A stretch of 64,000 nucleotides of DNA from an uncultured Candidatus Saccharibacteria bacterium (GTDB taxonomy: Bacteria > Patescibacteriota > Andersenbacteria > UBA10190), in contig CAYJKV010000003.1 in the NCBI GenBank assembly GCA_964371255.1, forward strand, positions 8,458 through 72,457, in the 5' to 3' direction. Position 1 is the first letter of the stretch; each line of letters opens with the position of its first letter. The notes beneath the pieces were generated by a model. That model had not been told where the DNA came from and did not search any database. It saw only the letters and a program-made list of their open reading frames with translations. The position numbers and the translations under genes were made by a program. This document shows, piece after piece, positions 2,508 through 52,204 of this stretch.

Positions 2508-3106
2508 GGCTAGGCCCCCAATATATTATTGATAACGCCGCTAATTTAAAAGAACACCTTGCAACTGCAAATTGCTTACGTTGCACAGGATAAAAAACCC
2601 AATAATATACGTCAAGCATATTAACTTCTATTTTGTCAACATCTATTGGCATGTTTTCGTATCCATTTTCCACTCAGGACTGTAATAGCTATAACTTACG
2701 AAGCCGATTTTTCTTATATTCTCTTGTTTCTGTTCTGCGTGAATTTCACGCCATGTTACTCCTCAACTATTGTGATCAGCCAAGATTAATAAATAAATCT
2801 ATATAAAATATTATTATGTCAGCGAATTTTGACGTATTCATTTCAGAATAGAAGTACTTTCTTTGGCTGGTGCATTTACCCTTGGCGTTATCACGAACCT
2901 GAATAGTCTGGCTTGCCCAGAATGATCATGCCCCTTATAGGGCCTAAAGTCTGGTTTGCTAGCTAAAAGACGTTACTAAGCCGATTCCATAGACCCGTTG
3001 CAGGAACAATAATCTAGTAGTATAGCTGCTAGGCCATCACCAGACTCTAAAAATTCTCTTGCACTATAATTATTTTAAAAAATGAGGATCCAATAATACT
3101 CAACTT

Positions 3107-3148
3107 TTGTCATAAAGATTTGACAAAATGCTATTTGTGGCGTATAAA
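3107..3148 (+). promoter_or_regulatory. sigma70-like promoter (TTGACA-17-TATAAA) overlapped by inverted repeat TTGTCA-N8-TGACAA
   Basis: -35 TTGACA at 3120-3125, a 17-nt spacer, and -10 TATAAA at 3143-3148. A 6-bp inverted repeat at 3107-3126 overlaps the -35. The nitroreductase-fold gene starts about 25 bp downstream. Confidence 0.5.
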
Positions 3149-3172: not shown

Positions 3173-4195
3173 ATGCTACAAAAAACCCCAAAACCAGCCG
3201 CCCAACAGCTCATATCTGCCAATACTTTAGCACGGCACATTATTCCATCTGCCATTCTGGCACCGTCCGCCCATAATACCCAACCTTGGAAATTTGAAAC
3301 TTCGTCAAACGTGATTGACATTTTTATCGACTGGAGCCGTCACTTAACTATATCCGATCCAACTCTCCGTCAACTTTATGTCAGTCTTGGTTGTGCTACG
3401 GCCAACGCGCTAAATGCTGCCAATTACTGGAACATGACAGCCGCTGTTCAATATTTCCCAGACGGTGCTGGTAAAGATAAACCGGTCGTGCGTCTAAGCT
3501 TCGCACCTGCCCACAAACCGGGAGAACACAATCAAGCGGAGGCAGACATGTTTGCGGCCATCGTCCAGCGGCACACCAACCGGTCTTTCTTTGATGAGCA
3601 GCCCCTGACTGTCGATGAACAAAAGGCTCTTAACCAGGACATTGATCAAAGCATCACCACCTTCGTCTCTGATCGTAACCAGATCGAACAAATCGCCCAA
3701 ATATCCCAAGAGGGGACTTTTAGCACTTTATCCCGCAAGGAATTTAAGGAAGAATTGTCTCATTGGGTGCGCAATAGTTGGACTTACCAGCATGACGGCA
3801 TGCCCGGTTATGCTATGGGCATTCCTGCCCCCCTTTCCCTGGTTGCTCCGATGATGGTTCGCATTGCCCCAATTCATGTTCAGGAAGCGCCCAAAACTAA
3901 ACAGCAAGTTGCCAGTTCCTCGACTCTGGCTATCTTTTCTACCGATACTGACACGCCTGTTGATCATCTAAAAGTTGGCCAGCAACTCCAGCAAGTCTGG
4001 CTCAACGCGACCGCGGCCGGATTAGCCGCCATGCCTGTGGTTGCCGCCATAGAAGCTGGCGAAGAATATCGCAACAGGTTGCGCGACATTACTCATGCCA
4101 AAACCTACCCCCAGTCTTTATTGCGTATCGGCCATTCATCTGCCACCAATCTTCGTGCCACACCCCGCCGTACGCTCGACGAATGCGTCCGCTAA
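3173..4195 (+). CDS. nitroreductase-fold flavoprotein (tandem or extended type, Acg/SagB-like size)
   Basis: Nitroreductase signature PSAHNTQPW near the N-terminus. The 340 aa is longer than classical ~200-aa nitroreductases, suggesting a tandem or extended fold. Confidence 0.6.
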   Translation: MLQKTPKPAAQQLISANTLARHIIPSAILAPSAHNTQPWKFETSSNVIDIFIDWSRHLTISDPTLRQLYVSLGCATANALNAANYWNMTAAVQYFPDGAGKDKPVVRLSFAPAHKPGEHNQAEADMFAAIVQRHTNRSFFDEQPLTVDEQKALNQDIDQSITTFVSDRNQIEQIAQISQEGTFSTLSRKEFKEELSHWVRNSWTYQHDGMPGYAMGIPAPLSLVAPMMVRIAPIHVQEAPKTKQQVASSSTLAIFSTDTDTPVDHLKVGQQLQQVWLNATAAGLAAMPVVAAIEAGEEYRNRLRDITHAKTYPQSLLRIGHSSATNLRATPRRTLDECVR

Positions 4196-5493: not shown

Positions 5494-6726
5494 ATGACAA
5501 AAAACCTTTTTAAAAAATTAGCATCAACACCTAACACCAACCCAGAACCTCCTAAACCGATTTTCTTTAGCTTATCTAATTCAGACGACGCTGCCCGATT
5601 GTCTGATCTCCTAGACCAGAATCCGCACATCAAGATTATTGACACTTACGACACCCAGCTCAAAGAATTGTTTACCCTGAATAATCCCGCTTTAAAAATG
5701 AACCCGCCCGAATTGGCTAAGCAGTTCGAGGCGTACCAAAAAGAACACTACCAAGACCTCGATCCGCGACAGGCAGGAAGCTGGGTTTATCTTCCCTGGC
5801 GGTTCGTGTTGCTCCACCTTCTTCAAGACAAAGATTTCCAGCAAGTCCGCACCGGCCGCAATCGCAACCTGATCACACCGGAAGAACAAGTAAAATATTA
5901 TAACAGCACCATCGGCATTGCCGGACAGTCCGTCGGCAATAGCTGCACCTTGAGCATCGTCTTAACCGGCGGCGGTAAGCATCTCAAAATTGCCGATCCG
6001 GACACACTAGAGCTGACTAACTTAAACCGCATCCGCGGCTCCATCGCCGATCTGACAGAACCGAAAGTATACATGTCCGCCCGCCAAATTTATGAACTGA
6101 ATCCCTATGCCGACATTACCATGTTCACTGACGGCATCACTGAGGATAATATCCAGGAATTTTGCGATGGGCTGGATGTGATGGTCGAAGAGATAGACAA
6201 TCTCGAAATGAAAATCCGTCTGCGTCAGGAAGCGCAAGTCAGAAAGATTCCCATCGTCATGGCCACTGACAATGGTGATAGCGGTGTGCTCGATGTCGAG
6301 CGTCACGATCTGGCAGATAATATCCCGCCTTTTCATGGACGGGGTGGTGATGACATCGCTGAACGTGTAGTTGGCAAAAAATTACCCTTGCCGGCCATCG
6401 GACAGATTATCGGCGGGGAATTGCTTGGTTATGACATTGCCGAGGAACGAACCGTACGCTCGCTGCTGGAAATTGGGCGTTCTATTCCCACCTGGCCGCA
6501 GCTCGGCTCCGCCGCCACCCTCAACGGTGCTGTTGTCGCTGTCGCCGTGCGCCGTATTCTAACGGGACAGCCCATCGTCGATGATCGTGCCAACATTTCC
6601 GTACCAGCGCTTATTGAACCTGGTTACACCGACAAAGAAACTACCGAGAAGCGCCTTAAAACCATCCACGAACTCGGCGACCAATTCAACACCATAGTCC
6701 AGCAAATCCTCAAGCATTCAAAATAA
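5494..6726 (+). CDS. ThiF/MoeB/E1-like adenylyltransferase-fold protein with ~130-aa N-terminal extension
   Basis: Rossmann and E1 signature IGIAGQSVGNSCTLSIVLTGGGKHLKIADPDTLELTNLNR (GxGxxG ... DxDxxExxNLNR). No CxxC zinc motif is present. Confidence 0.65.
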   Translation: MTKNLFKKLASTPNTNPEPPKPIFFSLSNSDDAARLSDLLDQNPHIKIIDTYDTQLKELFTLNNPALKMNPPELAKQFEAYQKEHYQDLDPRQAGSWVYLPWRFVLLHLLQDKDFQQVRTGRNRNLITPEEQVKYYNSTIGIAGQSVGNSCTLSIVLTGGGKHLKIADPDTLELTNLNRIRGSIADLTEPKVYMSARQIYELNPYADITMFTDGITEDNIQEFCDGLDVMVEEIDNLEMKIRLRQEAQVRKIPIVMATDNGDSGVLDVERHDLADNIPPFHGRGGDDIAERVVGKKLPLPAIGQIIGGELLGYDIAEERTVRSLLEIGRSIPTWPQLGSAATLNGAVVAVAVRRILTGQPIVDDRANISVPALIEPGYTDKETTEKRLKTIHELGDQFNTIVQQILKHSK

Positions 6727-7511: not shown

Positions 7512-8222
7512 CTAGTCATATTCCTTATCTGATTTCATTATGACGATTGCTTCATCAAGCAACTTTTGAAAATTTCTATTTTCCCTCCAAGCTTGTCGCA
7601 ACTTATTTCTTAGTATTTGGTGCTTGGGGTAACCCCTGTCCTCAGATAAAATCACAGCATCGAATTCAGGTTCATTCAACAGAATCGTTAGCGCTTCTTT
7701 CAAATTATCGCTTTGCTTCATATTTAATCCGTTCTTCTTCAGATAATTTCTATAGTAATGCAGAAATTGAAGATGCATGATTTCATGGCAAATTGTTGTA
7801 ATCGAATCCGGGAGGCTACGCCACAACGAAACCATGAACCAATTTCCCTTTTCGTTATATGGGCACATGTAGCCTGTCGTCCAAAAACAATTAAACTTCT
7901 CAGAACAAATCGGCTTACCTGTCATTTTCTCTAAAGCTTGCCAGTACTGTTGTTCCACCATCTTCCAGGCGACTTCTAGTGATCTTATTTCTTCTTTAAT
8001 TATCAAATCCCTGTATTTACGTTTCTGATCACCTTGCAGATACTCCCTGATTATTTCTTCAGCGTCTGTAAAACTGGCTTTTAACACCTGCGATAATAAA
8101 TTCTTTGGGATATGGCCGACTTCGTCCTTCCAGTCCAGTCCCCAGAGATTTTTATCTTTAGCAATTAAAACCCAGCTCCAAGCGTCCTTCACGATATCAT
8201 ATTGAAATTTTATTTGTGACAT
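7512..8222 (-). CDS. hypothetical protein with HExxH motif (possible zinc metallopeptidase)
   Basis: ORF with ICHEIMHLQFLHYY (HExxH). The start is taken at ATG 8222 (MSQIKFQYD). The longer TTG-initiated version to 8336 would run into repeat copy A. No family was recognised. Confidence 0.45.
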   Translation of the reverse strand: MSQIKFQYDIVKDAWSWVLIAKDKNLWGLDWKDEVGHIPKNLLSQVLKASFTDAEEIIREYLQGDQKRKYRDLIIKEEIRSLEVAWKMVEQQYWQALEKMTGKPICSEKFNCFWTTGYMCPYNEKGNWFMVSLWRSLPDSITTICHEIMHLQFLHYYRNYLKKNGLNMKQSDNLKEALTILLNEPEFDAVILSEDRGYPKHQILRNKLRQAWRENRNFQKLLDEAIVIMKSDKEYD

Positions 8223-8281
8223 ATAAATTTCTATCAATATGTACCCTGTTAACCGTGTATCCCAACAGTAGCACCTATTTT

Positions 8282-8477
8282 CTCTTGATATACTATAAAA
8301 CCACATAATCCCATGGCTCCGTCGTCCCAATAACAATCACCGCGACTCGCTATTCAACCTGCCTATCTACCCTCCCCGCCCCTAAAAAATGGGGGAGTAG
8401 ACCTAGCCTGCCAGCAGCTCACTACTGACGTTAATCAAACGCTAACGTCCTTCTCTGTTGTTAAAGCCCGATGTCAG
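8282..8477. repeat. Direct repeat copy A (~196 bp), a degenerate duplicate of the 5' end of the downstream adenylating-enzyme gene (pseudo-fragment)
   Basis: Nearly identical to 11200-11396. Relative to copy B the start codon is lost (ATA versus ATG). An A-run of 6 versus 8 causes a frameshift, and the reading frame terminates within 7 codons. Confidence 0.85.
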
Positions 8478-8721: not shown

Positions 8722-8880
8722 ATGAAGACAGAGCAAGTCAAGGGCATGCAAGAGAAACAGACTTACGGATTCAGCGGAAAACAAGAATCTGCCAAGATTT
8801 CTCTGAAAGCCACCAAAGTTCATGTCCAAAAGAGAGGAATGAATTCTGGCATCTCAGGCGGAAGTTCCCAATGTTGCTGA
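8722..8880 (+). CDS. candidate RiPP precursor peptide (52 aa, Lys-rich leader, C-terminal ...GISGGSSQCC)
   Basis: AAGGAGG sits 8 nt upstream of ATG 8722. The ORF track's longer 8662 start lacks an RBS. The peptide lies immediately upstream of an RRE-radical-SAM-SPASM gene and is followed by a hairpin terminator. Confidence 0.5.
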   Translation: MKTEQVKGMQEKQTYGFSGKQESAKISLKATKVHVQKRGMNSGISGGSSQCC

Positions 8881-8892
8881 ACAGATAAACTC

Positions 8893-8936
8893 GCGTGGCA
8901 TGTAATTGCTTTTTTGCATCATGCCACGCCTTTTTT
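8893..8936 (+). terminator. intrinsic terminator/attenuator between the precursor peptide and the radical SAM gene
   Basis: Stem GCGTGGCATG...CATGCCACGC is followed by CTTTTTT. Confidence 0.6.
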
Positions 8937-8950
8937 AAAAGGAGAACAGA

Positions 8951-10285
8951 ATGTCACCAACATATGTGAGGTTAGCTGATAGTGCCATATTCAAATCACG
9001 CTATGAGCAGAGGTACCTGATCAACACCTCTTGTCGTAACCGGGAACGCATTCTAATTGAAGGAGGGGCTGAACAAGTATTGCTTTTTCTATTTTCAGGA
9101 AAAAGTATCAGTGGCGCATGTACACATTTTTGTCTGGATTCAGAACAACTGACTGCCTATATACAAGGGCTGGTAGCCGAAAATGTTGTTGCTTGGTGCA
9201 CCAGTGCGATTGACTCCACAGCAAAGTGCTACAACACAGAGCCGCCACTCGATAGTATAAACATTCTTCTCACAAACGCGTGCAATCTTCATTGTGTACA
9301 CTGTGGCTTCTCGAGTGGCAAACCAATCGTGGGGGAACTAACTGGAGATGAGTGGATTAGTGTTCTTCAGGAAGCAGAACAGCTCGGTGTTTTTGAGGTC
9401 AACGTTTCCGGAGGAGAGCCAACGCTTCATAGAAATTTTATTCAGATAGCAAAACATATTTCTTCGATCCCATGCTTCAATGCCAATCTGAATACTAATG
9501 GTGTATCATTACCACCCCAGTACATTGAAACCATCGCGCAGGCCTTCACTAGTGTCCAAATTAGTATTGACGATGTTGTAGCATCAAAACATGACAAGTT
9601 TCGTGGTCGCAGAGGAAGTTTCAAGCGGTCAATAGAAACAATAAGACAGCTCGTCAATACAGGCGTCGAAACGAATATCGGTTTTACGTTAACCGCTGAT
9701 AATATTACAGCCCTAGATGATATTGTTGAGTTAGCGGAAAACTTAGGTGTCACTGTGCTGAACATCGGTCTAGTTGCCAATCTTGGTCGTGCTCACGATA
9801 ACCTACTACTAAAGGAGTTTGGAACAGGGCCGTGTCATAACAGTCCATTCATGGACCAAGTGTACCAGAGGATAAAGAAGTTATCGGTTAGTTCATCAAA
9901 TGTCCAGATTCTCCTGCCGTTTCGCATCCCTGACAAAAACCGGCCCGCGCCATTACAAGATAAGCGATACATTTGTGACGGCGATAACACGCAGGTTCTC
10001 TACATAACAGCGAATGGAAATATGATGCCTTGTGACAAGTTACCAGTTGAGGCGTTCTCTTACGGCAATGTGCGGCAGAACACGATACTGGGTACTTGGC
10101 AGTCTGATCGGATGAAAAAGTTCAAACTAATGAGTCCTAATGAGCTTCCCAAATGTAAAAAGTGCCCCGATTTAAGATTGTGTGGCGGAGCTTGTGTAGC
10201 ACGTGCTTATCAAGAGGGTGGTAGTCTGGATTCCTCAGATTGGATATCATGCGTTATTGCACAAAAGGTTTCTCAAGACTACTAG
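8951..10285 (+). CDS. radical SAM / SPASM-domain peptide-modifying enzyme with N-terminal PqqD-like RRE
   Basis: Cx3Cx2C motif NACNLHCVHCGF. The C-terminal Cys-rich SPASM region includes CDGD...MPCDKL...CKKCPDLRLCGGACVARAY. The first ~90 aa have a PqqD/RRE-like pattern. AAGGAG lies 7 nt upstream of the ATG. Confidence 0.8.
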   Translation: MSPTYVRLADSAIFKSRYEQRYLINTSCRNRERILIEGGAEQVLLFLFSGKSISGACTHFCLDSEQLTAYIQGLVAENVVAWCTSAIDSTAKCYNTEPPLDSINILLTNACNLHCVHCGFSSGKPIVGELTGDEWISVLQEAEQLGVFEVNVSGGEPTLHRNFIQIAKHISSIPCFNANLNTNGVSLPPQYIETIAQAFTSVQISIDDVVASKHDKFRGRRGSFKRSIETIRQLVNTGVETNIGFTLTADNITALDDIVELAENLGVTVLNIGLVANLGRAHDNLLLKEFGTGPCHNSPFMDQVYQRIKKLSVSSSNVQILLPFRIPDKNRPAPLQDKRYICDGDNTQVLYITANGNMMPCDKLPVEAFSYGNVRQNTILGTWQSDRMKKFKLMSPNELPKCKKCPDLRLCGGACVARAYQEGGSLDSSDWISCVIAQKVSQDY

Positions 10286-11199: not shown

Positions 11200-11396
11200 C
11201 TCTTGATATACTATAAAACCATATGATCCCCTGGCTCCGTCGTCCCAATAACAATCACCGCGACTCGTTATTCAACCTGCCTCTCTACCCTCCAGCCCCT
11301 AAAAAAAATGGGGGAGTCGATCTAGCCTCCCAGCAGCTCACTACTGACGTTAATCAAATCTTAACGTCCTTCTCTGTTGTTAAAGCTCGCCGTCAG
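11200..11396. repeat. Direct repeat copy B (~197 bp), the intact 5' end of the PaaK-like gene
   Basis: Matches 8282-8477 with a few substitutions and a 2-nt A-run difference. It contains the ATG 11223 start and an open frame continuing into the 540-aa ORF. Confidence 0.85.
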
Positions 11397-12845
11397 TTAT
11401 CTGACGTAAGTGAGGAGGAATGGCAAGGCAGGGGAGAGAAGAGGGCGTTGGCCCTTTTCCGAGCAGCCGCTGAATATGTTCCCGCCTACAAAGATTTTCT
11501 TAAGAAGAATAAGGTTAACCCGGATAAAATTAAAACCGTCAGTGACTTCAAACAGGTGCCCTTCGTCGATAAAGAAAACTACCTGCGTGTTTACCCCTTA
11601 CAACAGCTTTGTTGGTATGGTGACTTGTCTTTCTCTCAAATAATTTCTTTTAGCTCTGGTTCATCTGGACAGCCATTGTTTTGGCCTCGCGGTCAAATAC
11701 TAGACACAGAAACTACCCTTGAACATGAATTATTCCTGTCATCGTTTTTTAATATTGATACAAAGTCCACCCTATTGCTCAATTGCTTTTCCATGGGTAT
11801 GTATGTCGCCGGTAGCATCACATTAAATAGCGTCCTTAATTTAGGCCGAAAAGGTTATCCCATAACTGTCGTTACTCCCGGAATAGACATGGAAGATATC
11901 ATCCGAGTCATCCCTGAACTAAATCCTCATTTTAACCAAATCATCATTGCTGGTTATCCACCTTTTGTAAAAGATATCCTCGATGAAGGCATCCGAGCAG
12001 GAATTAACTGGCAGGACATTTCCATTAAATTCATCTTAGCTGGTGAAGGATATAGTGAAACTTGGCGAAAGCACATATCCAAAATTGTTAATGACGGGAG
12101 CCCTCTCTACGATTTCATAAATCTTTACGGATCAGCTGACGCAGCTGTGTTAGCTCATGAAACCCCTACTTCTATTATAACGCGATCGCGACTGGCGGGA
12201 GATGATAAAGTTCGAGAAAAACTCTTTGGTAGTTCACTGTTACCATCCTTATTACAGTATTATCCTGAGCATAAATTCTTTGAGCCTGTAAACAACGAAT
12301 TGATCTTCTCTACCACCGGCGGCGTCCCTCTTGTCCGCTATAATATTCACGACAAGGGAGGAATATTAAGCAAAAAGGACATAACAAGTAATATCCCGGA
12401 ACTGGATGAGTATCATACGGAATTAAAACGCCAAAACCATCTCTGGAATTTGCCCTTCGTGTATGTTTTTGGTAAAAGCGACTGCACTATAATGTTGTAT
12501 GGTCTTAATATTTACCCGGATAACATAAAAACTGCCTTGGAAAGTGAAGCCTTAAGAAAAACAACTACTGGTCGGTTTACTATGACATCTGAATTCAACG
12601 CCAATATGGATCAATATTTGCTCATTAATGTTGAGCTTGCCCCCGCTACAGAGCCTTCTCAAGCCTTGACCAGTGATATTAGCGACGCGATTGTATCAAC
12701 TCTTAAGAAAATGAATCGTGAGTACCAAAAATTATTTAACTCCATTGGCAACAAAGCCCTACCCACAATACGTCTGCACAAAAAAGGGGAAGGTAATCTG
12801 TTCTCACGAGCCGGCAAACAAAAATGGGTGAGAAATAATCCATAA
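11223..12845 (+). CDS. phenylacetate-CoA ligase / coenzyme F390 synthetase-family adenylate-forming enzyme (CapK-like)
   Basis: AMP-binding motif SFSSGSSGQPLFWP (PaaK-family SSGTTG-like). The N-terminal LRAAAEYVPAYKDFL region is typical of the PaaK family. The protein is 540 aa. Confidence 0.7.
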   Translation: MIPWLRRPNNNHRDSLFNLPLYPPAPKKNGGVDLASQQLTTDVNQILTSFSVVKARRQLSDVSEEEWQGRGEKRALALFRAAAEYVPAYKDFLKKNKVNPDKIKTVSDFKQVPFVDKENYLRVYPLQQLCWYGDLSFSQIISFSSGSSGQPLFWPRGQILDTETTLEHELFLSSFFNIDTKSTLLLNCFSMGMYVAGSITLNSVLNLGRKGYPITVVTPGIDMEDIIRVIPELNPHFNQIIIAGYPPFVKDILDEGIRAGINWQDISIKFILAGEGYSETWRKHISKIVNDGSPLYDFINLYGSADAAVLAHETPTSIITRSRLAGDDKVREKLFGSSLLPSLLQYYPEHKFFEPVNNELIFSTTGGVPLVRYNIHDKGGILSKKDITSNIPELDEYHTELKRQNHLWNLPFVYVFGKSDCTIMLYGLNIYPDNIKTALESEALRKTTTGRFTMTSEFNANMDQYLLINVELAPATEPSQALTSDISDAIVSTLKKMNREYQKLFNSIGNKALPTIRLHKKGEGNLFSRAGKQKWVRNNP

Positions 12846-12953: not shown

Positions 12954-12974
12954 TTGTCAATAACGGTTGACAAA
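12954..12974. promoter_or_regulatory. palindromic motif TTGTCAATAACGGTTGACAAA in the long intergenic region upstream of the 922-aa gene
   Basis: 7-bp inverted arms TTGTCAA/TTGACAA. It closely matches ATGTCAATAACCATTGACAAAA at 16523-16544. Related TTGTCAATAAATTGTTACAA and TTGTAACAA palindromes lie nearby at 13085-13180. Confidence 0.45.
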
Positions 12975-13215
12975 ACGCCCCAAAACTCGCTGTAGATCGT
13001 CGCTATATACCCCATAAATCAAGCCGTCTTAGGCCCTTTCAAGACAGAATCCTGCACTGTTTAACCATGTTCGTATATTGTTTGTCAATAAATTGTTACA
13101 AATTGCCTATATATACCGATTGACGTAAACCTATTCTCCTGCCTATTGTAACAATACTCAGTTTTCTGCTCGTCCTTTCCAACTAAATTTCCTCTGTTTC
13201 GAAAGGAGCTACCCA

Positions 13216-15984
13216 ATGGGTACCTCACGCCGCGTGAGGGGACTCGCCATGGAAAGTCTGGAAAGAAGGATTTATCTTTCTGCCGACCCCATTAGCCTGT
13301 CCCAATGGCAGAGCCAAGCCTGGTGTACAGGCTCGGTTTCTGAACAATCCGGTACAATCGTTGTAGCCGCCAATGGTCAAAGCCAGGGAGGCGACCATGT
13401 CGCCCTCACTGACTCGCCGGCCGTGGTTGACAGTGATCTCTATCTTGAGTTCACGCCGCAAGTCAACCATCTTGGCAACGACAAGGTGGTCTTCGAGATC
13501 AGTAATGGCAGTGGTACGCGCGTCGTCATCAACCTCGAACGCAACGACGCTGGTAACCTCTTTAGCATTACTGAACAAGAAGGGTATGGTGCACCGTCAT
13601 ATATCCAGACCGTCACCATCACCAACAACACTTCACACCGCCTGGAAATGAATGTGGATGAAGCAAGTTTTACTCTCTTCATCGACCAGCTGCCGCTCGC
13701 CACTTACCCTGGACAGCTGGCCGCGAACTCCTTTGTTCGTCTGTGCGTTCGCGGTGATAGGGAAATCGCGCAATTGCAGCTGACTGGTTTAGGCGGGATG
13801 TTCTCGGACTATACCAGTTCCTTAGGTGAATCTGGTGAAGCATCCGACCCCGCTGATCCGCTTGATGCGTCGCTTTGGCAACAGCAAACCTGGAGTACCG
13901 GTCAAGTCTCATCGACCGGCAGCCAGATTAGCCTTAGCGCCAACGGCGGAGCGCAGGGTGGAGACCATGTCGTAATCTTGCAGTCCCCAGTCGTTCCGGG
14001 AGATTTCTTTCTGGATATTCTTCCCAGTGTCAACTACGCTGCTGCGAACGCTGACAGCGACAAAGTCTTGGTTGAAATCGGCAACGGTACCACCTCGCGC
14101 CACACGGTCAATCTTGTCCGTGACAGCAATGGTGATCTGTACACAATTGTCGAGACCACAGATCCAGAGGCTCAGATTAGCCAGGTGACAATCACCAACG
14201 GCCAATCTCATCGCCTCGAGGTTAATGCGACAGAAACCGACTTCTCCGTCTTTGTCGATGAATCGCTCGTCGCTGCTTTCTCTGAGCCTTTAGCGGCCGA
14301 TGCTTTCGTCCGTTTGGGGCTGCGTGGTGACAAGGCTTTAGCGCAGGTAAGTCTCACTGGCTTAAATGGCGTCTTTACACCATATACCAGCGAGCTGATT
14401 GCCGGCGCTGAACCTCAAATCATCGAGCTCTTTGCTCTAGTTACTCTGGATGCCGCTGTCCTTCCAGTGGTGGAAGTGCCCAGCTTTGTAGCTAGCCTCT
14501 CCGCGCCGGCACCGACAGTGCCAAGCATGGGTACCGTTGAAACTGCCAGCTTCGCGCAACGCATTGCTCGCAGTATTACGTCTGCTAATACGATTGCTCG
14601 CACTGGTCGGACATATTACGACGCCGACTACGGAGTAGACGTCTACGCCGGTTCTAACCAGTACTTCGTGGAGTACAATAACGGCGCTGTTGAACTGCGA
14701 GTCATCCCCTCCGGTCTACCAGCCGGCCAGGACCACCCGTTTGTTCATGAAGTAACGCCGATTCTCCGCAACACTGCAGACGTCGGTCAGGTTGCTAAGC
14801 CGGTTAGTCGAACTGGCGCGACCTTCTACGATCCGGCACGCGGTATTGATGTCTATGCCGGTGAGGGCAAATACTTGATCGAATACACGGATGGCACCAT
14901 TGAAGAACGTAATCGACCTAGCGGCGGATACATTCCTCTTCCGGAAGACTTCACCGTCGGCGGCTCGGACTATTCCGAGCCCATGTCTGCCTTCGGACCT
15001 TCCGCGCAAGTCCTCGGTCTTTCCACGGATGGCACCAGCCCCAAGTCTAGCAGCGAACTCTACTATATCGGCCCTTCGTATGTGTCGAATAGCGGACAGC
15101 AGCGCATCGCCGGACCAGGTCAAGTTTTTCTGCAGGATCCTGTCACTAAAACGATTCTTCTTCGTCCCGTGGCAGATGGTGACGTAGCTCTGCAGAGGCC
15201 CGTATCCCCAGTAGTCACTATTGCCACCCATCCCGCTACGGTCATTACCGACCTCTTCCAGCAAACCTATGGCCGGACGCCAACCAGTGAAGAACTCTCT
15301 TACTGGCGCCAACGTACGGATAAGAGTGGGGATTCATTACTTGGAGCGATGGAGTATGCGCATCAGCAGTCTGTTGATGCAACTATAACTCAGTTAGGGT
15401 TAATAGATAGCAGTGCTATTGGATACTTTGATTCAGAGAGTCCAATGTCAGCATATGACCTTCCTGAGTTTCACAGCATTTCTCAGGTCCCCGTTGCAGA
15501 ATTCGTGGTGTCCTTAAATCTTGGCTTAATCGACCGTGATCAAGCAGCAGCCACGATTTATACGCACATCGAAGAGCTTGAGTTATGGTGGAACACTACG
15601 GTGCAAACGCATCTTGATGCATTCAGTTTATGGAAGAACGAATTAAGTTTTGTACCACCATCGCCCGTAAGCATGGAAGCGTTGTCGTTTTACATCAACA
15701 GTCCTGATTACGTAGTCACTGTAGACTCTTTACCATCATTTGTAACTGGAAGTATACATGATGGTGCCTCAACATCTATCCGAATTCGTCGTATTGGTAG
15801 TATCACTGGCACTCAAGTAACACTTGATGCCTCAGGCAATATCATTCAAGTAGGCGAGCAAGGAGCAGGCTCTGACGACATGATAAGCCCCACTAGCACC
15901 CCAGGACACATTTCACTCATAGACGGTGCACGACTTTGGGGGCATGTAACCTTGGACGTGCTTCCTTGGCTAATTTTTCAGTAG
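13216..15984 (+). CDS. large repetitive secreted or surface protein (two ~190-aa tandem N-terminal repeats, two ~80-aa repeats, DUF4214-like motif)
   Basis: AAGGAG RBS upstream of the ATG. Internal duplication is visible (QSQGGDHVALTDSP... versus AQGGDHVVILQSP...; TGRTYYDADYGVDVYAG versus TGATFYDPARGIDVYAG). A DUF4214-like LFQQTYGRTPTSEELSYWRQRTDKSGDSLLGAMEY lies near residue 700. The first ~2.1 kb is GC-rich and the last ~0.65 kb is AT-rich. Confidence 0.7.
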   Translation: MGTSRRVRGLAMESLERRIYLSADPISLSQWQSQAWCTGSVSEQSGTIVVAANGQSQGGDHVALTDSPAVVDSDLYLEFTPQVNHLGNDKVVFEISNGSGTRVVINLERNDAGNLFSITEQEGYGAPSYIQTVTITNNTSHRLEMNVDEASFTLFIDQLPLATYPGQLAANSFVRLCVRGDREIAQLQLTGLGGMFSDYTSSLGESGEASDPADPLDASLWQQQTWSTGQVSSTGSQISLSANGGAQGGDHVVILQSPVVPGDFFLDILPSVNYAAANADSDKVLVEIGNGTTSRHTVNLVRDSNGDLYTIVETTDPEAQISQVTITNGQSHRLEVNATETDFSVFVDESLVAAFSEPLAADAFVRLGLRGDKALAQVSLTGLNGVFTPYTSELIAGAEPQIIELFALVTLDAAVLPVVEVPSFVASLSAPAPTVPSMGTVETASFAQRIARSITSANTIARTGRTYYDADYGVDVYAGSNQYFVEYNNGAVELRVIPSGLPAGQDHPFVHEVTPILRNTADVGQVAKPVSRTGATFYDPARGIDVYAGEGKYLIEYTDGTIEERNRPSGGYIPLPEDFTVGGSDYSEPMSAFGPSAQVLGLSTDGTSPKSSSELYYIGPSYVSNSGQQRIAGPGQVFLQDPVTKTILLRPVADGDVALQRPVSPVVTIATHPATVITDLFQQTYGRTPTSEELSYWRQRTDKSGDSLLGAMEYAHQQSVDATITQLGLIDSSAIGYFDSESPMSAYDLPEFHSISQVPVAEFVVSLNLGLIDRDQAAATIYTHIEELELWWNTTVQTHLDAFSLWKNELSFVPPSPVSMEALSFYINSPDYVVTVDSLPSFVTGSIHDGASTSIRIRRIGSITGTQVTLDASGNIIQVGEQGAGSDDMISPTSTPGHISLIDGARLWGHVTLDVLPWLIFQ

Positions 15985-16039
15985 TCCATCGTACTCTTTA
16001 GGAGACAGATTTATGGCCGCATGTAACATTGCGGCTTTT

Positions 16040-16390
16040 TTATACTACCATTCCTAAAACCATCATTATTCCAATAATAAATACCCCCAAACTTAAATGT
16101 AACCACCCAGACAGATATCTGCGATGCAGAATTCGATAAACTCCAAAAAGAGCCAGCATACCAATACTACCTATCCATAAAAAACCAAATAAACCCGTCA
16201 ATATTAGTAATAAAATTGACGTCTCGTCTCGCATCCAGGCAAAACGATTAATAGAAGAGAAGAATACACTTAAGAATCCAAGAGACATTGAAACTAATAA
16301 AGGCAGCCACCACGACTCGACATATAACCTTATAAATCTTTCAAAGGATGGTAGGGACTGAGCAGGTATCTTTTGACCGTTATTTACCAT
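16040..16390 (-). CDS. hypothetical small membrane protein (3-4 TM helices)
   Basis: Hydrophobic ORF with no recognised family. Confidence 0.35.
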   Translation of the reverse strand: MVNNGQKIPAQSLPSFERFIRLYVESWWLPLLVSMSLGFLSVFFSSINRFAWMRDETSILLLILTGLFGFLWIGSIGMLALFGVYRILHRRYLSGWLHLSLGVFIIGIMMVLGMVV

Positions 16391-16522
16391 AAATAATTTA
16401 TACTCTTAAAAAAGATATATCTCAATCTGTATGCCTCATAAAAGTAGGACATTACACGAGATGACATAGCCATAATCTTCTAAACAACTAAAATATTCCT
16501 TTAGCAGAGCGTAAAATAAAAA

Positions 16523-16564
16523 ATGTCAATAACCATTGACAAAAACCTGTTGCCATAATATAAA
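16523..16564 (+). promoter_or_regulatory. sigma70-like promoter (TTGACA-17-TATAAA) embedded in palindrome ATGTCAATAACCATTGACAAAA
   Basis: -35 at 16536-16541, a 17-nt spacer, and -10 TATAAA at 16559-16564. It lies about 50 bp upstream of the secreted-protein gene. Confidence 0.5.
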
Positions 16565-17512: not shown

Positions 17513-17729
17513 GCGTACCGATTAAATTTATTACCGCCAATGTTACAGATAGCAATTGCATTCTTGGCTTGAACTAGTAACTATCGTAACCACTTTCTAC
17601 GGTTGCTCTCTTAAACAATCAACAAACCAATCTAGAAGTATGTCCGTACTATCAGTGCGGTACAAAATGTCATCCCCATGCATATTAGTAAAACCTATTA
17701 CCCGCTTGCTATACTTAAAAAGGAAGTCT

Positions 17730-18707
17730 ATGGATACCATACAAAAACCTGTAATAAAAAAACGTTCTGCAATTATTGATGCCGCCATTCTTGATTTGCT
17801 TGAGTACAGAAAAAGTTGCGATCAGCAACTATATTATTCAATAGATGAAAACATCAGGTTCTTTGAGGCTGCTCGTTCGTTGCCTCGTTATATTTTTTGG
17901 CTCCTTACAGAATACTCTAAAATCAACGGACATCGTATCTTAGAGCTTTCAGATTTTCATTTGCGTGAGGGTGAATGGGAAAAGATGTTGCTTGGTCAAC
18001 TGCTTACCCTGGAAAGAAAAAACATTCCAGACCTGATCGGACCATTAAGGAAACAGCTATCAAAAGAAATCCGAACAATAACTCAGCAAAAAAATGAACC
18101 AATCGTAGTAATTAATATGGGCTGTGGCGGAATGGAAACCGAGCGAAGAATAGCCTTAGGGCTATTCAAAAAACCTCTTACCCAACCCATCATCTTTATT
18201 GGTATCGATTCTTCCCCAGCTGCCATCAAGGTTGCTCAGCAAAATTTGCGTAGTTTTAGTAAGGAATTTACGCAATTGGAAAGCCTTACCCCTGATGTCA
18301 TTCATTCAATCAAAAATATCCAAACAGACAAACCTGTTCAATTTAAAGTATTTATTGGCGATGCCCTAAATATTCATAATTATGCCGAGCCTCAAACAAT
18401 CGACATAATTTTTCATTCCAAGTTTCATCATCATCTGTCAGATCAAGACAAAAGACGCTTTGACGATATGATAAGAAAGACTGCTTGTTGTGCAATCGAA
18501 TTCGATGATTATCGGGGTGCCTATTTACCTATACTCTCTATCCTAACCGGCTGGAATAAGCCCATTCTACTAAATGGCGCTGTTATTAGCAGTCTGCGTG
18601 ATCCAACTAAAGAGGATATTAAAAACTACAAAAAAGAAGGATGGATAACCAAAATCTATCCGTTAAAAGGATTTTTGAAAATACATCACTCGTCCCAAAC
18701 CTGTTAA
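17730..18707 (+). CDS. putative class I SAM-dependent methyltransferase-fold protein
   Basis: Gly-rich motif VINMGCGGMETERRIALGL followed by IFIGIDSSPAAIKVAQQNL. The start is taken at ATG 17730, which has AGGAAG upstream. The track's TTG 17556 gives a longer version. Confidence 0.4.
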   Translation: MDTIQKPVIKKRSAIIDAAILDLLEYRKSCDQQLYYSIDENIRFFEAARSLPRYIFWLLTEYSKINGHRILELSDFHLREGEWEKMLLGQLLTLERKNIPDLIGPLRKQLSKEIRTITQQKNEPIVVINMGCGGMETERRIALGLFKKPLTQPIIFIGIDSSPAAIKVAQQNLRSFSKEFTQLESLTPDVIHSIKNIQTDKPVQFKVFIGDALNIHNYAEPQTIDIIFHSKFHHHLSDQDKRRFDDMIRKTACCAIEFDDYRGAYLPILSILTGWNKPILLNGAVISSLRDPTKEDIKNYKKEGWITKIYPLKGFLKIHHSSQTC

Positions 18708-18737
18708 TATAGAAGCACCACTTAACCAGCAGTCTTT

Positions 18738-20990
18738 ATGTACGCAGAAACAGTCTTCCGTCTTATTATTCTTTCCATAACTATAATTCTCGGCTTTCTT
18801 GCATATCGCAGGAATTCTCGTCATGCAACCAATACACTTCTGGCACTACTAACCGTCCTAATTTTTTTATGGGGTGTTAGTAATGAAATATCACTTTATT
18901 CAACAACTACCACAGGCACATTGTTCTGGATCCGCATGACGATGTTTTTTGCGGTACCAACAGCTGTCCTCTTTTTTGTTTTTATGCATACGTTTCCTCG
19001 TGCCAGCCTCGCGATGTCACGTCAACTAATGGCACTCGTTCTTCTAGTGACTGGCAGTGTTATGTCACTATCGTTATCACCCTGGTTGTTCACCACTATT
19101 GCCGATGGCGTGGGAGCAAACGCGAAACCTGTGCCAGGGTTTGGCATTATAATATTTGCCTTAACAGTCACCGCCGCAAATCTAACTGCTATCTACCTTT
19201 TGATTGTAAAAAACTTTAAACTCTCTGGCGTCTTTAAGCTCCAAGCCCGTTATCTCTTGCTTGGTACAGCCATTACTCTGAGTTTAATCATGGGTCTCGT
19301 TTTCTTCCCAGTTGTCTTGCTCCGCTTCACTGCTTTTGTGCCCTATCAGAGTGAGCTCATGCTACCTTTTGTCGCCCTCACCGCCTACGCCATTGTCCGT
19401 TACCGCCTCATGGACATCCGCGCTGCCATCGCTCGCAGTCTTTCCTTTTCCATTCTGCTCGGCGCCTTCTTCGCCATCTACGGCGCTATTCTCATCTTCG
19501 CTGTACCACGTTTAGCTGACTGGTTAGGTATCCGTGAAGGGTTTATCGCCGCTGTCGGCGCCCTTCTCTCTGTTTTGCTTGCCCGCTATATCCAAGAAGC
19601 CCTGCGCCGTCTCACCGACCGTTTCCTTTTCCAAAACCAAATTGATTACCGCCGCGCTCTCGTTGAAACCAGCAAGGAACTATCTACCACCATCCACATC
19701 GAAGACGTCACCAGGACTGTCCTGGATATTATGGAGAAGGTTATCCGTACTAAGAAAACCATCATTTTTCTTCAGGAAAACAAAGGCCACAATTTTACCC
19801 CTTATGCCAACCGCGGCGCCAGTTCCATCAAAGTCTCTATCCCCAAGGAGCATGTCCTAGTTCGCCATATTCAACACAACATGGGCCTGCTTGTTAAGGA
19901 TGAATTGGCTCATGAGCGCGAGCAGGAACGCGACGAATCCCACGCAGCGGAAATTAAGCAAGTGGAGCAAACTTTTGTCTGGCTCGACATGGCTGTCGTG
20001 TTACCCCTGTACGTTAACAAACAACTGACCGGCCTGATCGTTCTGGGCGACAAAAAATCCGGCACTCCTTACATGCAGGATGACCTAAACTTTCTAGCTG
20101 CCTTATCTCCCCAGGCTGCCACCGCCCTCGAAAATGCCCGTCTCTACCAGGAATCTCTGGCTTTCGGGGAAAAATTGAAATCTGAAGTTAAGCGCGCCAC
20201 TCACGAACTGGAAATTGCCAACGCCCAGTTGCGCGACTTAGACAAGGCCAAGAGTGAATTCTTGAGCATCGCTAGCCACCAGTTGTACACCCCCATGACC
20301 GCCCTCCGGGGCTACCTGTCCATGTTGCGGGAAGGGGACTATGGCGCTACTCCATCCAAACAACAACCCATCATTAAAATTCTGGAAACCAGCTCTACCC
20401 GCCTCATTAATCTAATCAAGAATTTACTCGATGTGTCGCGCATTGAAAGCGGCCGTCTTGAGCTCAATCTTGAGTCGCTGGACTTTAGTCACATGGTTAA
20501 AGAGCTTGTCCAAGATCTCATGCCTAACGCCCTTAACAAAAAAGTTAAGCTGCAATACTACCAGCCTGCAGAACAATTGCCCCATGTCGTGGCCGACCAG
20601 GAACGCGTTCGCCAGGTCATCCTCAACATCGTTGACAATGCCATTAAATACACAGACCAAGGTCGCATTGATGTCCGTGTGCAGCAAACGGACCACACCA
20701 TCACCCTTACGGTCAATGACACGGGCCGCGGCATGACGCCGGACGAAATGACCAAGCTCTTCACCAAATTCACCCGTGTCGGCGGTGCCTCCAAATACCG
20801 CAAAGAGGGGACTGGCCTTGGCCTCTACGTTGCCAAGCAAATCATCCGCGAGCATCATGGCGACATCGAAATAACGAGTCCCGGCCTGAACCACGGCTCT
20901 ACTTTCTATGTTCATCTGCCCATCGAAGGCTCGCCCAATGCCCTCACCGCCGGCAAGAAAGTATCCGTCGAAATTAAAGCGGGGAAATAA
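18738..20990 (+). CDS. sensor histidine kinase (multi-TM N-terminal sensor, GAF, HisKA, HATPase_c)
   Basis: About 6 N-terminal TM helices. A GAF-like region ends at ...LENARLYQE. The H-box is LSIASHQLYTPMTAL. N/G1/G2 boxes NIVDNAIKYT, DTGRGM and GTGLGL are present. Confidence 0.85.
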   Translation: MYAETVFRLIILSITIILGFLAYRRNSRHATNTLLALLTVLIFLWGVSNEISLYSTTTTGTLFWIRMTMFFAVPTAVLFFVFMHTFPRASLAMSRQLMALVLLVTGSVMSLSLSPWLFTTIADGVGANAKPVPGFGIIIFALTVTAANLTAIYLLIVKNFKLSGVFKLQARYLLLGTAITLSLIMGLVFFPVVLLRFTAFVPYQSELMLPFVALTAYAIVRYRLMDIRAAIARSLSFSILLGAFFAIYGAILIFAVPRLADWLGIREGFIAAVGALLSVLLARYIQEALRRLTDRFLFQNQIDYRRALVETSKELSTTIHIEDVTRTVLDIMEKVIRTKKTIIFLQENKGHNFTPYANRGASSIKVSIPKEHVLVRHIQHNMGLLVKDELAHEREQERDESHAAEIKQVEQTFVWLDMAVVLPLYVNKQLTGLIVLGDKKSGTPYMQDDLNFLAALSPQAATALENARLYQESLAFGEKLKSEVKRATHELEIANAQLRDLDKAKSEFLSIASHQLYTPMTALRGYLSMLREGDYGATPSKQQPIIKILETSSTRLINLIKNLLDVSRIESGRLELNLESLDFSHMVKELVQDLMPNALNKKVKLQYYQPAEQLPHVVADQERVRQVILNIVDNAIKYTDQGRIDVRVQQTDHTITLTVNDTGRGMTPDEMTKLFTKFTRVGGASKYRKEGTGLGLYVAKQIIREHHGDIEITSPGLNHGSTFYVHLPIEGSPNALTAGKKVSVEIKAGK

Positions 20991-24867: not shown

Positions 24868-26442
24868 CTACCTTCTCGTCTTCCCCTGCGCATCTTTCAA
24901 CCATTGAATCGTCCCTCCTAGTTTTTCTATAGTGTTCCGGTCACCTGACTCTATCCGGCCATACCAATAATCCTTATCCGCCTCGTCCGGCTCCTTTTGG
25001 TGCGTAAAGTAGAACAGGTAGGGAAACCAATGGCTCTTTAATTTGTCGCCGCCAATCTCAGCCGTCCATGACGTTCTTGCTGGCTTTTTCCCGGTAACAG
25101 CCGCCCTCTTCATCGCCGCGCGCAAGTCCGCCTCATTATTCACTTCACCGTTGTAAATATAATCCACCCAGAATTTATTCTCACTCACCGTCGGCTCCTT
25201 GTCATACGCTGTCAGGTAATAATCATTCACGTTATTAATCATTGTTCGGATATGCGGTCTCACCTTTATTAAAGTAGATGAAGTATTGGGCGCGGCCGAG
25301 GGCTGCTCTTTGCCGGCACTGCTCGCCACCACCGATTTAAAAGCGCCGATCGAATAACCGTGCGGATAGCGTTTTAAGAATTCCGGATAATTTTTCATTA
25401 CGTATTTTTGTTTATATCCCATCGCGGCGAATACCCCGGGAGAGGCGACTAACCTCAGCTTCCCGCCTTGCACCACGTAGATATTGTTACCCAAGCCGAC
25501 CACCCATCCGTTCGGGTATCTTTCAATATTTGATCCTCTTTCATGACGTGCCAACATGGCCGTATTAGCGGGTGCGCGCATACTCTCGTCCGGATTCCCG
25601 TCTGCTTCGTAAATATAATCAGAGAGATACAAATGCTTTGTTAATTTGCCTCCACTGGCTTCCTTAATCCGCCAAATCTGGCCGCCGTGCCACGCTCCGG
25701 AATAAACCACCATCCCGCCCGGATATTGCGTGGTGGAAGATAACGCCGGCCCTGTCGCAAACTCACTCAAGTGCGCGGCGCTCGTGCCGTATAAATTACC
25801 ATCCGGCATCTTGTAAGCCGCGCGTAAACTCGCTGAGATTTTCCGTTTGCGGAACTTATCGTCAATATAATATTGCGTTCCGTCTGGGTGCTGTAACACT
25901 TTACCGATGTAAATCTCATTCACTGATATTGTTTGGGGGTAACGTGCCAGGTCTTCCTCAGAAACAGTAATAATAATATCATGTTTAAAATAGTGGTTCT
26001 CGTTCAGCCACCGGTCGATCACGGCCGGCAACACCCAACTTTTCTTTCCGCCTCGTAAATAATAAACAGCGCTCTTGGTGGGGGATTTTACCAGTGTTCC
26101 GTCCGGCAAGAAATTTGGATTTATCGCGGAAGGATATAGATTTTTCGCCACTTTAAAATTTTTCGCCGTCGGTACATTGCTCGCGTTCAGACTGGTGATT
26201 CCAGCCACGCTTGTTCCCATAGTTTTTCTATATCCGATTGCCCCCACTAGTTCCCGATAGGTCTTTTTCTCACCGCGAGTGACCCGCGCGGCCCAATAAG
26301 ACCATTCAGCTGTCGTCGGCAGGCGATTGTTTATCTCTCGAAACGCTTGATTAATCTGGTCAATCAACGCCGCCTCCGCGACAAGTGGTAGGCTTAATAA
26401 AAGCAAAAAAGTGGCTATCAATTTTGCCACACGACTTCTCAT
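24868..26442 (-). CDS. secreted protein with DUF4214-like motifs
   Basis: Signal peptide MRSRVAKLIATFLLLLSLPLVAEA. Motifs TAEWSYWAARVTRGEKKTYRELVGAIGY and DKDYWYGRIESGDRNTIEKLGGTIQWL. Confidence 0.65.
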   Translation of the reverse strand: MRSRVAKLIATFLLLLSLPLVAEAALIDQINQAFREINNRLPTTAEWSYWAARVTRGEKKTYRELVGAIGYRKTMGTSVAGITSLNASNVPTAKNFKVAKNLYPSAINPNFLPDGTLVKSPTKSAVYYLRGGKKSWVLPAVIDRWLNENHYFKHDIIITVSEEDLARYPQTISVNEIYIGKVLQHPDGTQYYIDDKFRKRKISASLRAAYKMPDGNLYGTSAAHLSEFATGPALSSTTQYPGGMVVYSGAWHGGQIWRIKEASGGKLTKHLYLSDYIYEADGNPDESMRAPANTAMLARHERGSNIERYPNGWVVGLGNNIYVVQGGKLRLVASPGVFAAMGYKQKYVMKNYPEFLKRYPHGYSIGAFKSVVASSAGKEQPSAAPNTSSTLIKVRPHIRTMINNVNDYYLTAYDKEPTVSENKFWVDYIYNGEVNNEADLRAAMKRAAVTGKKPARTSWTAEIGGDKLKSHWFPYLFYFTHQKEPDEADKDYWYGRIESGDRNTIEKLGGTIQWLKDAQGKTRR

Positions 26443-29557: not shown

Positions 29558-29574
29558 ATTGTAACTATAGTATT

Positions 29575-29614: not shown

Positions 29615-29692
29615 TGTGTATAGCAAAGTGAAAGCCGATAGGTCGACGGTGTTCAGCTTTGTCACTTAATTAACAATAGGTAAAAAATCACT

Positions 29693-47869: not shown

Positions 47870-48011
47870 GTAAAAAAAATGTCAAAATCCAATTACAAAT
47901 GAAATCCAAAATCCAAATATTCAAAACTGCTCTTTTCCAAAGCGCCCACTTTAATGATCAAAAGATCAAGCTGATTTTTGACATTTACCATTGATTTAAC
48001 ATTTGGATTTT

Positions 48012-51542: not shown

Positions 51543-52204
51543 TCTCTAAAAATACCATGCCAACCTAGACCAGAAAACAGATAGTCGGTTTCGAGTTTTG
51601 AATTTCTGATTTGTCTAGGGTTTCTCGATTTCTCCCTAGGGGACCACATGGGGGGATTTCGGATTTTATGTAGCGGGGGTCGGAATTGCACCGACGATTT
51701 CCTGGTTATGAGCCAGGCGAGATACTACTTCTCCACCCCGCGTTATATTGGTCAGTCCGAGTCACCTAAACGTATACTCTCAAACTGATATTTCTGTTTC
51801 TTTACTGCCTCCCGTCTTAAAAAATCGCTTAACGAATATTTATAACGCTATCTGGTTGCAGTGTGCCCCATTGTACGCTCAACCAATTAAGCATGCAACT
51901 GTCAATGATTATTTACAAAATGGTGGTAAAAAACCTTGCGCCTCTCCTCTGCTTCTAGGCATGGTTATATTGACCGGTGGGACATTAATAGGGGGGAATA
52001 TTTACACACAGATCACGCCCCGAATAAACCTACTGCGTCCTTAAGAGCTACCGCACCCAGTGCGAGCTTTACATCCCCGCTCATGCGGGGTTGTTCTTTA
52101 TTATAAAATTGGCTACATTTTCTCTGCCTCTTCTTTTATGATGAATAGTATCGTCAGCTTAATGTTTTTAGGCCACAAGGCTTTTTGAACATTTAGCCTC
52201 GGTG

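Follow-up and report, generated by a model that had tools for sequence, protein, structure and literature searches.

A conserved TTGTCAA-N6-TTGACAA palindrome, a candidate operator, upstream of an Acg-family nitroreductase gene and exported-protein genes in an Andersenbacteria-like bacterium

The palindromes and their common frame

We analyzed a 64,000-nt stretch of DNA (the window; contig CAYJKV010000003.1, positions 8,458 to 72,457) from an uncultured Candidatus Saccharibacteria bacterium of the Andersenbacteria lineage, in which a 20-base palindrome recurs upstream of an Acg-family nitroreductase gene and of two genes for exported proteins. The source contig, NODE_190 of the metagenome assembly ERZ13693046, is 173 kb long; its readable part is about 79 kb, of which about 15 kb lies beyond the window. 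The gene content of the window fits a bacterium of the Candidate Phyla Radiation (CPR), 86% of the window is coding and 14% non-coding, and the nitroreductase protein is 77% identical to its closest named relative, a protein from a Candidatus Andersenbacteria metagenome-assembled genome. Orthologous loci were obtained by protein look-ups and one scan of a genome collection. The fetched contigs and relatives used for comparison are labelled L001–L343, and coordinates without a label refer to the window.

A first-pass annotation of this DNA had described three palindromes, TTGTCAATAACGGTTGACAA(A) at 12954-12974, ATGTCAATAACCATTGACAA(AA) at 16523-16544 and TTGTCATAAAGATTTGACAA at 3107-3126, and all three were found at these positions. 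The palindromes and the genes next to them are as follows (lengths in amino acids, aa; scores in bits from the external matrix described below).

3107..3126, no strand: palindrome TTGTCATAAAGATTTGACAA in the promoter of the Acg-family nitroreductase gene; 25.0 bits
3120..3148, plus strand: promoter-like unit, TTGACA (3120-3125), 17 nt, TATAAA (3143-3148); the spacer holds a conserved TTGTGGCG (3135-3142)
3173..4195, plus strand: Acg-family flavin mononucleotide (FMN)-binding oxidoreductase with nitroreductase fold (Pfam PF14512, PF00881; NCBIfam NF047509)
12954..12973, no strand: perfect-arm site TTGTCAATAACGGTTGACAA, 262 bp 5' of the 922-aa gene; 28.4 bits
13082..13101, no strand: second site TTGTCAATAAATTGTTACAA, 134 bp 5' of the 922-aa gene; 22.2 bits
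13216..15984, plus strand: gene for the 922-aa protein, which has two lectin-like repeats and, once, the ~45-aa repeat that it shares with the 301-aa protein
16523..16542, no strand: palindrome ATGTCAATAACCATTGACAA in the promoter of the 301-aa gene; 24.4 bits
16536..16564, plus strand: promoter-like unit, TTGACA (16536-16541), 17 nt, TATAAA (16559-16564); identical in L340
16607..17512, plus strand: gene for the 301-aa protein, which has an N-terminus resembling a signal peptide and contains the shared repeat twice

The spacers of these palindromes had been read as 4, 6 and 8 nt long, which had raised the possibility that more than one factor is involved. We found that the sites at 3107, 12954 and 16523 share one frame of 20 bases, TTGTCAA-N6-TTGACAA, with half-sites of 7 nt, and that the same frame fits the sites at 13082, 2633, 2816, 3302 and 8511. 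The spacer is constant, and the apparent variation was an artefact of how the half-sites had been delimited; with constant spacing, the argument for a second factor loses its basis. The consensus is TTGTCAAWAA-nnn-TTGACAA. The flanks are conserved too, giving an extended motif of roughly TTTTGTCAA-N6-TTGACAAAA in our first weight matrix. The spacer is asymmetric at all sites, with motif positions 8-10 A-rich (WAA) and positions 11-13 not T-rich, and the sites are thus polar relative to the downstream gene.

The motif is strongly over-represented. TGTCA-N(4-12)-TGACA occurs four times in the window against 0.35 expected, and the 20-mer with up to three mismatches seven times against 0.06 expected. 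With the first matrix, the training set of which included the window site at 8511, ten window positions scored 18-32 bits and everything else 8 bits or less. To avoid circularity, we built an external matrix from eleven sites of other species only. It found seven matches of at least 15 bits in the window (0.07 in shuffled sequence) and six of at least 18 bits (0.025 in shuffles); the seven are those at 12954, 3107, 16523, 2633, 13082, 3302 and 2816. The positions 51899, 47879 and 8511 reached 12-14 bits, little above the mean best shuffle score of 11.3. All ten candidate sites but one are intergenic, and eight fall within 2.6-16.5 kb. A chance origin of the motif is excluded. Over-representation and confinement to non-coding DNA upstream of genes, as found here, are what is expected of the operator of a transcription factor.

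Conservation of the sites and candidate target genes

The nitroreductase label given to the gene at 3173-4195 was right: its product matches the Acg-family model NF047509 with 257.6 bits (cut-off 199) over model positions 3-318 of 319. Also as described before, the right half of the palindrome is at the same time a -35 hexamer TTGACA, 17 nt from TATAAA, at two of the three sites (3107 and 16523), and this can be read directly from the DNA. Our own promoter scan (TAnnnT) omitted both 3120-3148 and 16536-16564 because TATAAA lacks the T required at position 6.

We found the palindrome before the nitroreductase orthologue in nine species, with protein identities of 50-78%; in L011, L012, L014, L016, L017, L018, L019 and L021 the orthologous site lies 66-100 nt 5' of the start codon. 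In all nine species, the palindrome is followed by exactly 17 nt and then by a hexamer beginning with TA, of which only the TA is invariant. The start (AAAT) and the end (TTGTRGYG) of this 17-nt spacer are conserved in most of the nine, and the sequence farther upstream of the site is unrelated among them. There is often no space for a divergent gene to the left of the site, and in L017 and L021 a co-directional upstream gene, for an epimerase, stops a few nucleotides before it. In 755 kb around more distant orthologues (identity of 43% or less), the best matrix score was 18.1.

The 12954 site, upstream of the 922-aa gene, is conserved in L340 (at 1930) and in L012/L341 (GTGTCAATAGGGTTTGACAA), where the orthologue of the 922-aa protein is 40% identical and the site lies at a similar distance of about 250 bp. 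The second site, 13082, is present in L340 (at 2057) and vestigial in L012. Orthologous promoter regions thus keep the motif amid diverged flanks at the nitroreductase gene in nine species and at the 922-aa gene in three. Overlap with a promoter did not hold for 12954: the site lies about 260 bp from the gene, and a -10-like hexamer was sought at 16-18 nt and not found. An arrangement of a TTGACA-like hexamer, 16-18 nt and TAnnnT is equally absent at 13082, 8511 and 2633.

Conservation is poorer at the 301-aa gene, which had been placed under the same regulator. The palindrome is present there in the window, and that part of the claim stands, but it is not conserved. In the close relative L340, TTGACAAAAACCTGTTGCCATAATATAAA is retained base for base with TTGACA-17-TATAAA intact, and the left half of the palindrome is absent; in L341, no upstream site was found. 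This suggests that the membership of the 301-aa gene in the regulon is recent or unstable. The assignment of both exported proteins to DUF4214 (PF13946) was not upheld, the 301-aa protein scoring 15.5 bits (E 0.018) against a cut-off of 23.2 and the 922-aa protein having no Pfam match. The two do have a common repeat of about 45 aa (BLASTP E 4e-6). The same sub-threshold DUF4214-like repeat (15.6 bits) occurs at the C-terminus of a 524-aa protein encoded at 24868-26442 on the minus strand, and this gene has no motif site upstream. Taken together, these data bear out that one shared dyad-symmetric motif, enriched in the window and conserved across species, joins the nitroreductase-fold gene and the secreted-protein genes.

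The remaining sites and candidate targets are as follows.

2633..2652, no strand: intergenic site TTGTCAACATCTATTGGCAT, 126 bp 5' of the minus-strand 120-aa gene 2145-2507; 22.9 bits
2816..2835, no strand: site ATGTCAGCGAATTTTGACGT in the same 665-bp intergenic region as 2633; 15.5 bits (18.7 with the first matrix)
3302..3321, no strand: intragenic match TCGTCAAACGTGATTGACAT, 129 nt inside the nitroreductase gene; 18.4 bits
8511..8530, no strand: weaker site TTGTCAACCAACACTGACAA; 12.4 bits (19.9 with the first matrix, whose training set included it)
8722..10285, plus strand: 52-aa peptide gene (8722-8880) and radical SAM/SPASM maturase gene (8951-10285; Pfam Radical_SAM, SPASM)
17730..20990, plus strand: genes for a 325-aa methyltransferase-like protein and a histidine kinase with seven transmembrane segments and a GAF domain (7TM-GAF), possible downstream members of the regulon
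47879..47898, no strand: borderline match ATGTCAAAATCCAATTACAA between ligA and gatC; 13.2 bits (mean best shuffle 11.3)
51899..51918, no strand: borderline match CTGTCAATGATTATTTACAA between two divergent tRNA-Met genes; 14.4 bits

The functional relevance of the intragenic match at 3302 is doubtful; its counterpart is weaker in L016 (15.9 bits) and there is none in L011. The nitroreductase gene and the ThiF-like gene at 5494-6726 match the C- and N-terminal halves, respectively, of the fused Rv1355c family (NF005901), and so appear to be a split pair. In distant CPR genomes the Acg oxidoreductase and ThiF remain linked to a PaaK-like ligase and the 7TM-GAF kinase.

The 8511 site lies between a minus-strand gene for a 264-aa HExxH protein and the operon of the 52-aa peptide and the radical SAM protein. 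Comparable sites precede radical-SAM operons in L011 (18347), L338 (4176) and L337 (6005), and the operon at 8722-10285 is a probable target. The best NCBIfam matches of the radical SAM/SPASM gene are peptide maturases. The cassette resembles those of ribosomally synthesized and post-translationally modified peptides, with a 52-aa open reading frame (ORF) ending in ...GGSSQCC followed by a radical SAM/SPASM maturase and a methyltransferase; in L011 (18542-20115) a 42-aa ORF takes the equivalent position. Nearby, the stretches 8282-8477 and 11200-11396 are direct copies of about 196 bp with 89-90% identity. The copy covers the upstream region and the first ~58 codons of a 540-aa PaaK-like gene, stops about 30 bp before the 8511 site and resembles a rearrangement junction.

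The pair of methyltransferase-like and 7TM-GAF kinase genes is conserved in L336, L337 and L341. In L236 and L337 a motif site (31 and 20.6 bits, respectively) precedes the homologue of the methyltransferase-like gene, and in L337 the motif also stands before an epimerase gene. Just downstream of the borderline match at 51899, a structured stretch (51935-52105; z = -2.2) between the two divergent tRNA-Met genes ends in a terminator-like hairpin (52076-52100); no Rfam family matched the stretch, which may be a small RNA that has so far escaped annotation.

The candidate regulator and its mode of action

We asked whether the palindrome is read as DNA sequence or as a folded strand. Across 23 sites we counted 26 deviations in the arms, of which 22 are one-sided and two complementary. 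The substitutions thus break the symmetry and do not compensate for each other, suggesting that it is the base sequence that is selected rather than a stem, and that a protein reads it. From these comparisons of sequence, we conclude that the palindrome is in all likelihood the operator of a dimeric regulator.

We propose that a single homodimeric helix-turn-helix regulator has (T)TTGTCAA-N6-TTGACAA(A) as its operator and would control a small, lineage-specific regulon in Andersenbacteria-like CPR bacteria. In the window, the sites concentrate at 2.6-16.5 kb, and the genes they precede, with their likely co-transcribed neighbours, reach to about 21 kb. This island contains the Acg nitroreductase (half of the split Rv1355c-type pair), the 120-aa membrane protein, the peptide/radical-SAM/SPASM operon and the two exported proteins of 922 and 301 aa; the methyltransferase-like and 7TM-GAF kinase pair probably belongs to it as well. 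Where the right arm doubles as the -35 hexamer, at 3107 and 16523, a dimer on the site would obstruct sigma region 4 and thereby repress transcription. Farther upstream, the sites at 12954, 13082, 2633 and 2816 may have an auxiliary or cooperative role, or may be operators of promoters that have yet to be recognised. The promoter of the 301-aa gene that L340 keeps without the left arm does not appear to depend on the palindrome, which favours occlusion over activation. The binding of a protein, the repressive mode and the identity of the regulator are what we infer. Taken as a whole, namely one homodimeric helix-turn-helix regulator, a small lineage-specific regulon, repression where the right half is the -35 and a TrmB-family protein as the most likely regulator, this proposal seems to us somewhat better than an even bet.

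Next, we looked for the regulator itself. The extra ~15 kb of the source contig contained no regulator and no further motif sites, and the only helix-turn-helix protein in the readable ~79 kb is the Xre protein of an Xre/ImmA-like pair at 28.7-29.6 kb. This pair was rejected, as it has its own, different inverted repeat and no motif match and lies in a tRNA-bounded mobile remnant. Besides the Xre protein, whose true start is probably near 29557, that island (27457-31605) encodes a Bro-N protein and an M78/ImmA-like peptidase; it has the appearance of a mobile-element remnant and carries the inverted repeat TTGCACTT-N9-AAGTGCA near 29575-29600. The divergent ORFs at 16040-16390 and 2145-2507 were set aside as small membrane proteins, and the gene at 7512-8306 as one for an HExxH protein.

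We then turned to other sequence collections. A metagenome scan with TTTTGTCAA-N6-TTGACAAAA gave at least 120 matches, as did a viral scan with a 14-base core. The regulon could not be defined from these scans, in which the matches listed are mostly from unrelated taxa and only L236 has a homologous context. A Pfam census of 113 genes flanking the listed matches was heterogeneous, with no single target family, except for one cluster: regulators of the TrmB family (PF01978) of about 255 aa stood out. TrmB-family genes of L231, L266/L343 (two paralogues), L272/L342 and L225 have the exact palindrome upstream, four times over the gene's own -35. Close homologues are annotated as TrmB-family regulators of Parcubacteria group bacteria, and the TrmB-type family is large, with 5,446 clusters at E<=1e-10. 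A TrmB homologue is also encoded in L029 and L056, within the same module that joins the genes for the PaaK-like ligase, ThiF, the Acg oxidoreductase and the 7TM-GAF kinase. These associations make a TrmB-family winged-helix protein, of the ~255-aa type that is common in Parcubacteria, the leading but tentative candidate for the regulator, though on balance we would not yet count on it. A DnaA box, TTATCCAC(A), stands one nucleotide from the palindrome at four metagenome loci that are unrelated to each other, far above chance (L231 596-605, L236 1-10, L258 ~2796-2804 and L288 ~12194-12203). A link to DnaA was dropped for the window, where no DnaA box is near the sites.

Several observations weigh against the proposal of a TrmB-type repressor. 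No TrmB gene or other plausible regulator was found in the ~79 kb of source contig, nor any TrmB homologue in the window, L001 or L339, and the TrmB link, resting on other organisms, is circumstantial. The palindromes at the promoters in L029 (3480-3494) and L056 (~1290-1305) are 15-mers, TGTYAA-N3-TWRACA, with the same arms as the window motif and a 3-nt spacer, 3 nt shorter than in the window. With at least 120 metagenome occurrences of the exact 24-mer, most of them in unrelated taxa and beside unrelated genes, its sequence by itself is not diagnostic. Poor -10-like hexamers (TATAAA here; TAGAAG, TAGGAA and TACCAT in relatives) would also suit a promoter that depends on an activator. Finally, several of the strong sites are 130-260 bp away from the gene and have no promoter that we could recognise.

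Given the last two points, activation or a dual action instead of repression is possible. The motif could be the site of an activator, for example a response regulator partnered with the 7TM-GAF histidine kinase of the island, acting as class II over the -35 at 3107 and 16523 and, from farther upstream, in a class I-like manner at 12954, 13082 and 8511. This reading gains from the conservation of the kinase gene within the island and from the motif sites ahead of the methyltransferase-kinase pair in L236 and L337. The nitroreductase promoters, too, have weak -10-like hexamers in which only the TA is conserved, and several sites stand well upstream of any promoter-like sequence. However, the fetched loci of the clade contain no gene for a DNA-binding response regulator, and the kinase carries HisKA (PF00512). 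HisKA kinases usually have partners of the OmpR or NtrC type, and such regulators typically bind to direct repeats. Moreover, the L340 promoter lacking the left arm speaks against a need for an activator, and the TrmB genes with the same palindrome over their own -35 resemble cases of autorepression. We consider an activator site unlikely.

Another explanation would do without a dedicated regulator: the likeness of the sites would derive from promoters that have a consensus -35 (TTGACA) and an A-rich start of the spacer, with the upstream TTGTCAA incidental or serving as the -35 of a back-to-back divergent promoter. TTGACA is the sigma-70 -35 consensus, and the L340 promoter has it without the left arm. 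About a quarter of the 99 unique metagenome occurrences of the 24-mer listed have TAnnnT at 16-18 nt from one arm, five of them on both sides, and the window sites 2633, 8511 and 16523 lie in divergent intergenic regions. But the left arm is kept in nine species before the nitroreductase gene, where the upstream gene is co-directional, and with no divergent gene and no -10 to the left of these sites it cannot be the -35 of a divergent promoter there. In known bacterial bidirectional promoters, it is the -10 element that is symmetric and not the -35 (bioRxiv 10.1101/2020.01.31.928960; PMC12825309), whereas the symmetry here lies in the -35 region. At the strong sites 12954, 13082 and 2633, neither strand has a -10 at 16-18 nt. 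Nor are consensus -35 boxes general here: the two strands of the window have 23 TTGACA hexamers, about half of which are in the motif, and only three of the others are intergenic, a scarcity which argues that the consensus -35 is not a general promoter feature in this DNA; another promoter of the clade is of the extended -10 type. For these reasons, we regard a purely promoter-derived likeness as quite improbable.

The extended -10 element in question, TTGCTATACTTA, is conserved about 20 nt 5' of the 325-aa methyltransferase-like gene in four species (window ~17700-17712; L336 ~15-30; L337 ~6075-6090; L338 ~5650-5665). This conservation suggests that promoters of the clade are often independent of a -35 element.

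The last alternative, a hairpin that serves in termination, attenuation or RNA stability, or else one end of a small mobile element, finds some ground in the inverted repeat of 7-9 nt with a 6-nt loop and in occurrences close behind an upstream gene (47879 after ligA; L017 and L021 after the epimerase gene), but the non-compensatory substitutions, AT-rich arms with no T-run after them and the lack of any Rfam match to the palindrome led us to reject an RNA element, and single-copy occurrence at orthologous positions with no flanking repeats or target duplications argues against a mobile end, so that we give this explanation hardly any weight.

Relation to known regulatory systems and significance

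We compared the motif with operators described elsewhere. The proposed repressor operator is closest in layout to those of the general class of autoregulated dimeric repressors that bind over the -35: a 20-bp dyad with one arm being TTGACA, 17 nt to a -10-like hexamer, occurrence at several promoters of one neighbourhood and, on other contigs, a palindrome over the -35 of candidate regulator genes. It differs from this class in that several window sites are far from any recognisable promoter.

For archaeal TrmB, TrmBL1 and Tgr, the motifs TACT-N3-AGTA, TGM TATCAC-N5-GTGATA and TACT-N7-8-GAGTA have been listed (PMC4158304). The candidate regulators share with these proteins an N-terminal PF01978 winged-helix domain and, apparently, frequent autoregulation, with repression from palindromes over core promoter elements. 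In contrast, half-site sequence and spacing differ, the window motif matching none of the listed TrmB motifs, and the ~255-aa bacterial proteins match the TrmB/TrmBL1 models over the N-terminal ~100-140 residues only, far below the equivalog cut-offs.

The TnrA/GlnR sites of Firmicutes, TGTNA-N7-TNACA over 17 bp (PMC6191146), have the same TGTnA/TnACA arm core and can likewise overlap the -35. The window sites differ from them, however, in being all TGTCA-N8-TGACA over 18 bp with TT/AA flanks bearing T- and A-tracts, and their target genes are unconnected to nitrogen metabolism.

The gene context of the motif recalls a further system. In mycobacteria, DosR recognises a 20-bp palindrome, TTSGGGACTWWAGTCCCSAA, and controls acg/Rv2032 and Rv3131 via the GAF-domain kinases DosS and DosT. 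Both systems have a 20-bp palindrome before an Acg-family oxidoreductase, and here a GAF-domain histidine kinase is found in the neighbourhood. But our motif is unrelated to the DosR box, the kinase here is of the 7TM-GAF-HisKA type, whereas DosS is soluble with a HisKA_3-type domain, and no NarL-type regulator was found in any fetched locus. The hsp20 gene, about 6 kb upstream, lacks a motif site. The parallel with DosR is an analogy only. The BirA box was also considered and rejected, as its half-sites (TTGTCAACC) are similar but spaced by 14-15 nt. The boxes of LexA, Rex, PadR and CusR differ in arm sequence, orientation or spacing.

CPR bacteria have few regulators, are not grown alone, and their transcriptional control is almost unstudied. 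Our literature search found nothing on such a motif, or on TrmB regulators, in Patescibacteria; on CPR transcriptional control it found only work on the LexA/SOS network. An operator placed over a promoter is a textbook mechanism; the motif and the regulon are new, and the regulator family is plausible.

A bolder and rather speculative reading, to which we attach little probability, is that the palindrome is the operator of Parcubacteria-wide ~255-aa TrmB-type regulators, which would switch a portable island jointly with the 7TM-GAF kinase. That island would consist of the split Rv1355c-type pair of ThiF and Acg proteins, the PaaK-like ligase, the radical-SAM-modified peptide and the large exported proteins. 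If this were true, it would be a CPR counterpart of a dormancy or host-contact regulon, and a bacterial TrmB regulator would for the first time have a defined operator and regulon. The finding provides a concrete and testable cis-element, conserved in at least nine species, that connects an Acg-type oxidoreductase with exported proteins and an operon for peptide maturation, and it points to a candidate family for the regulator.

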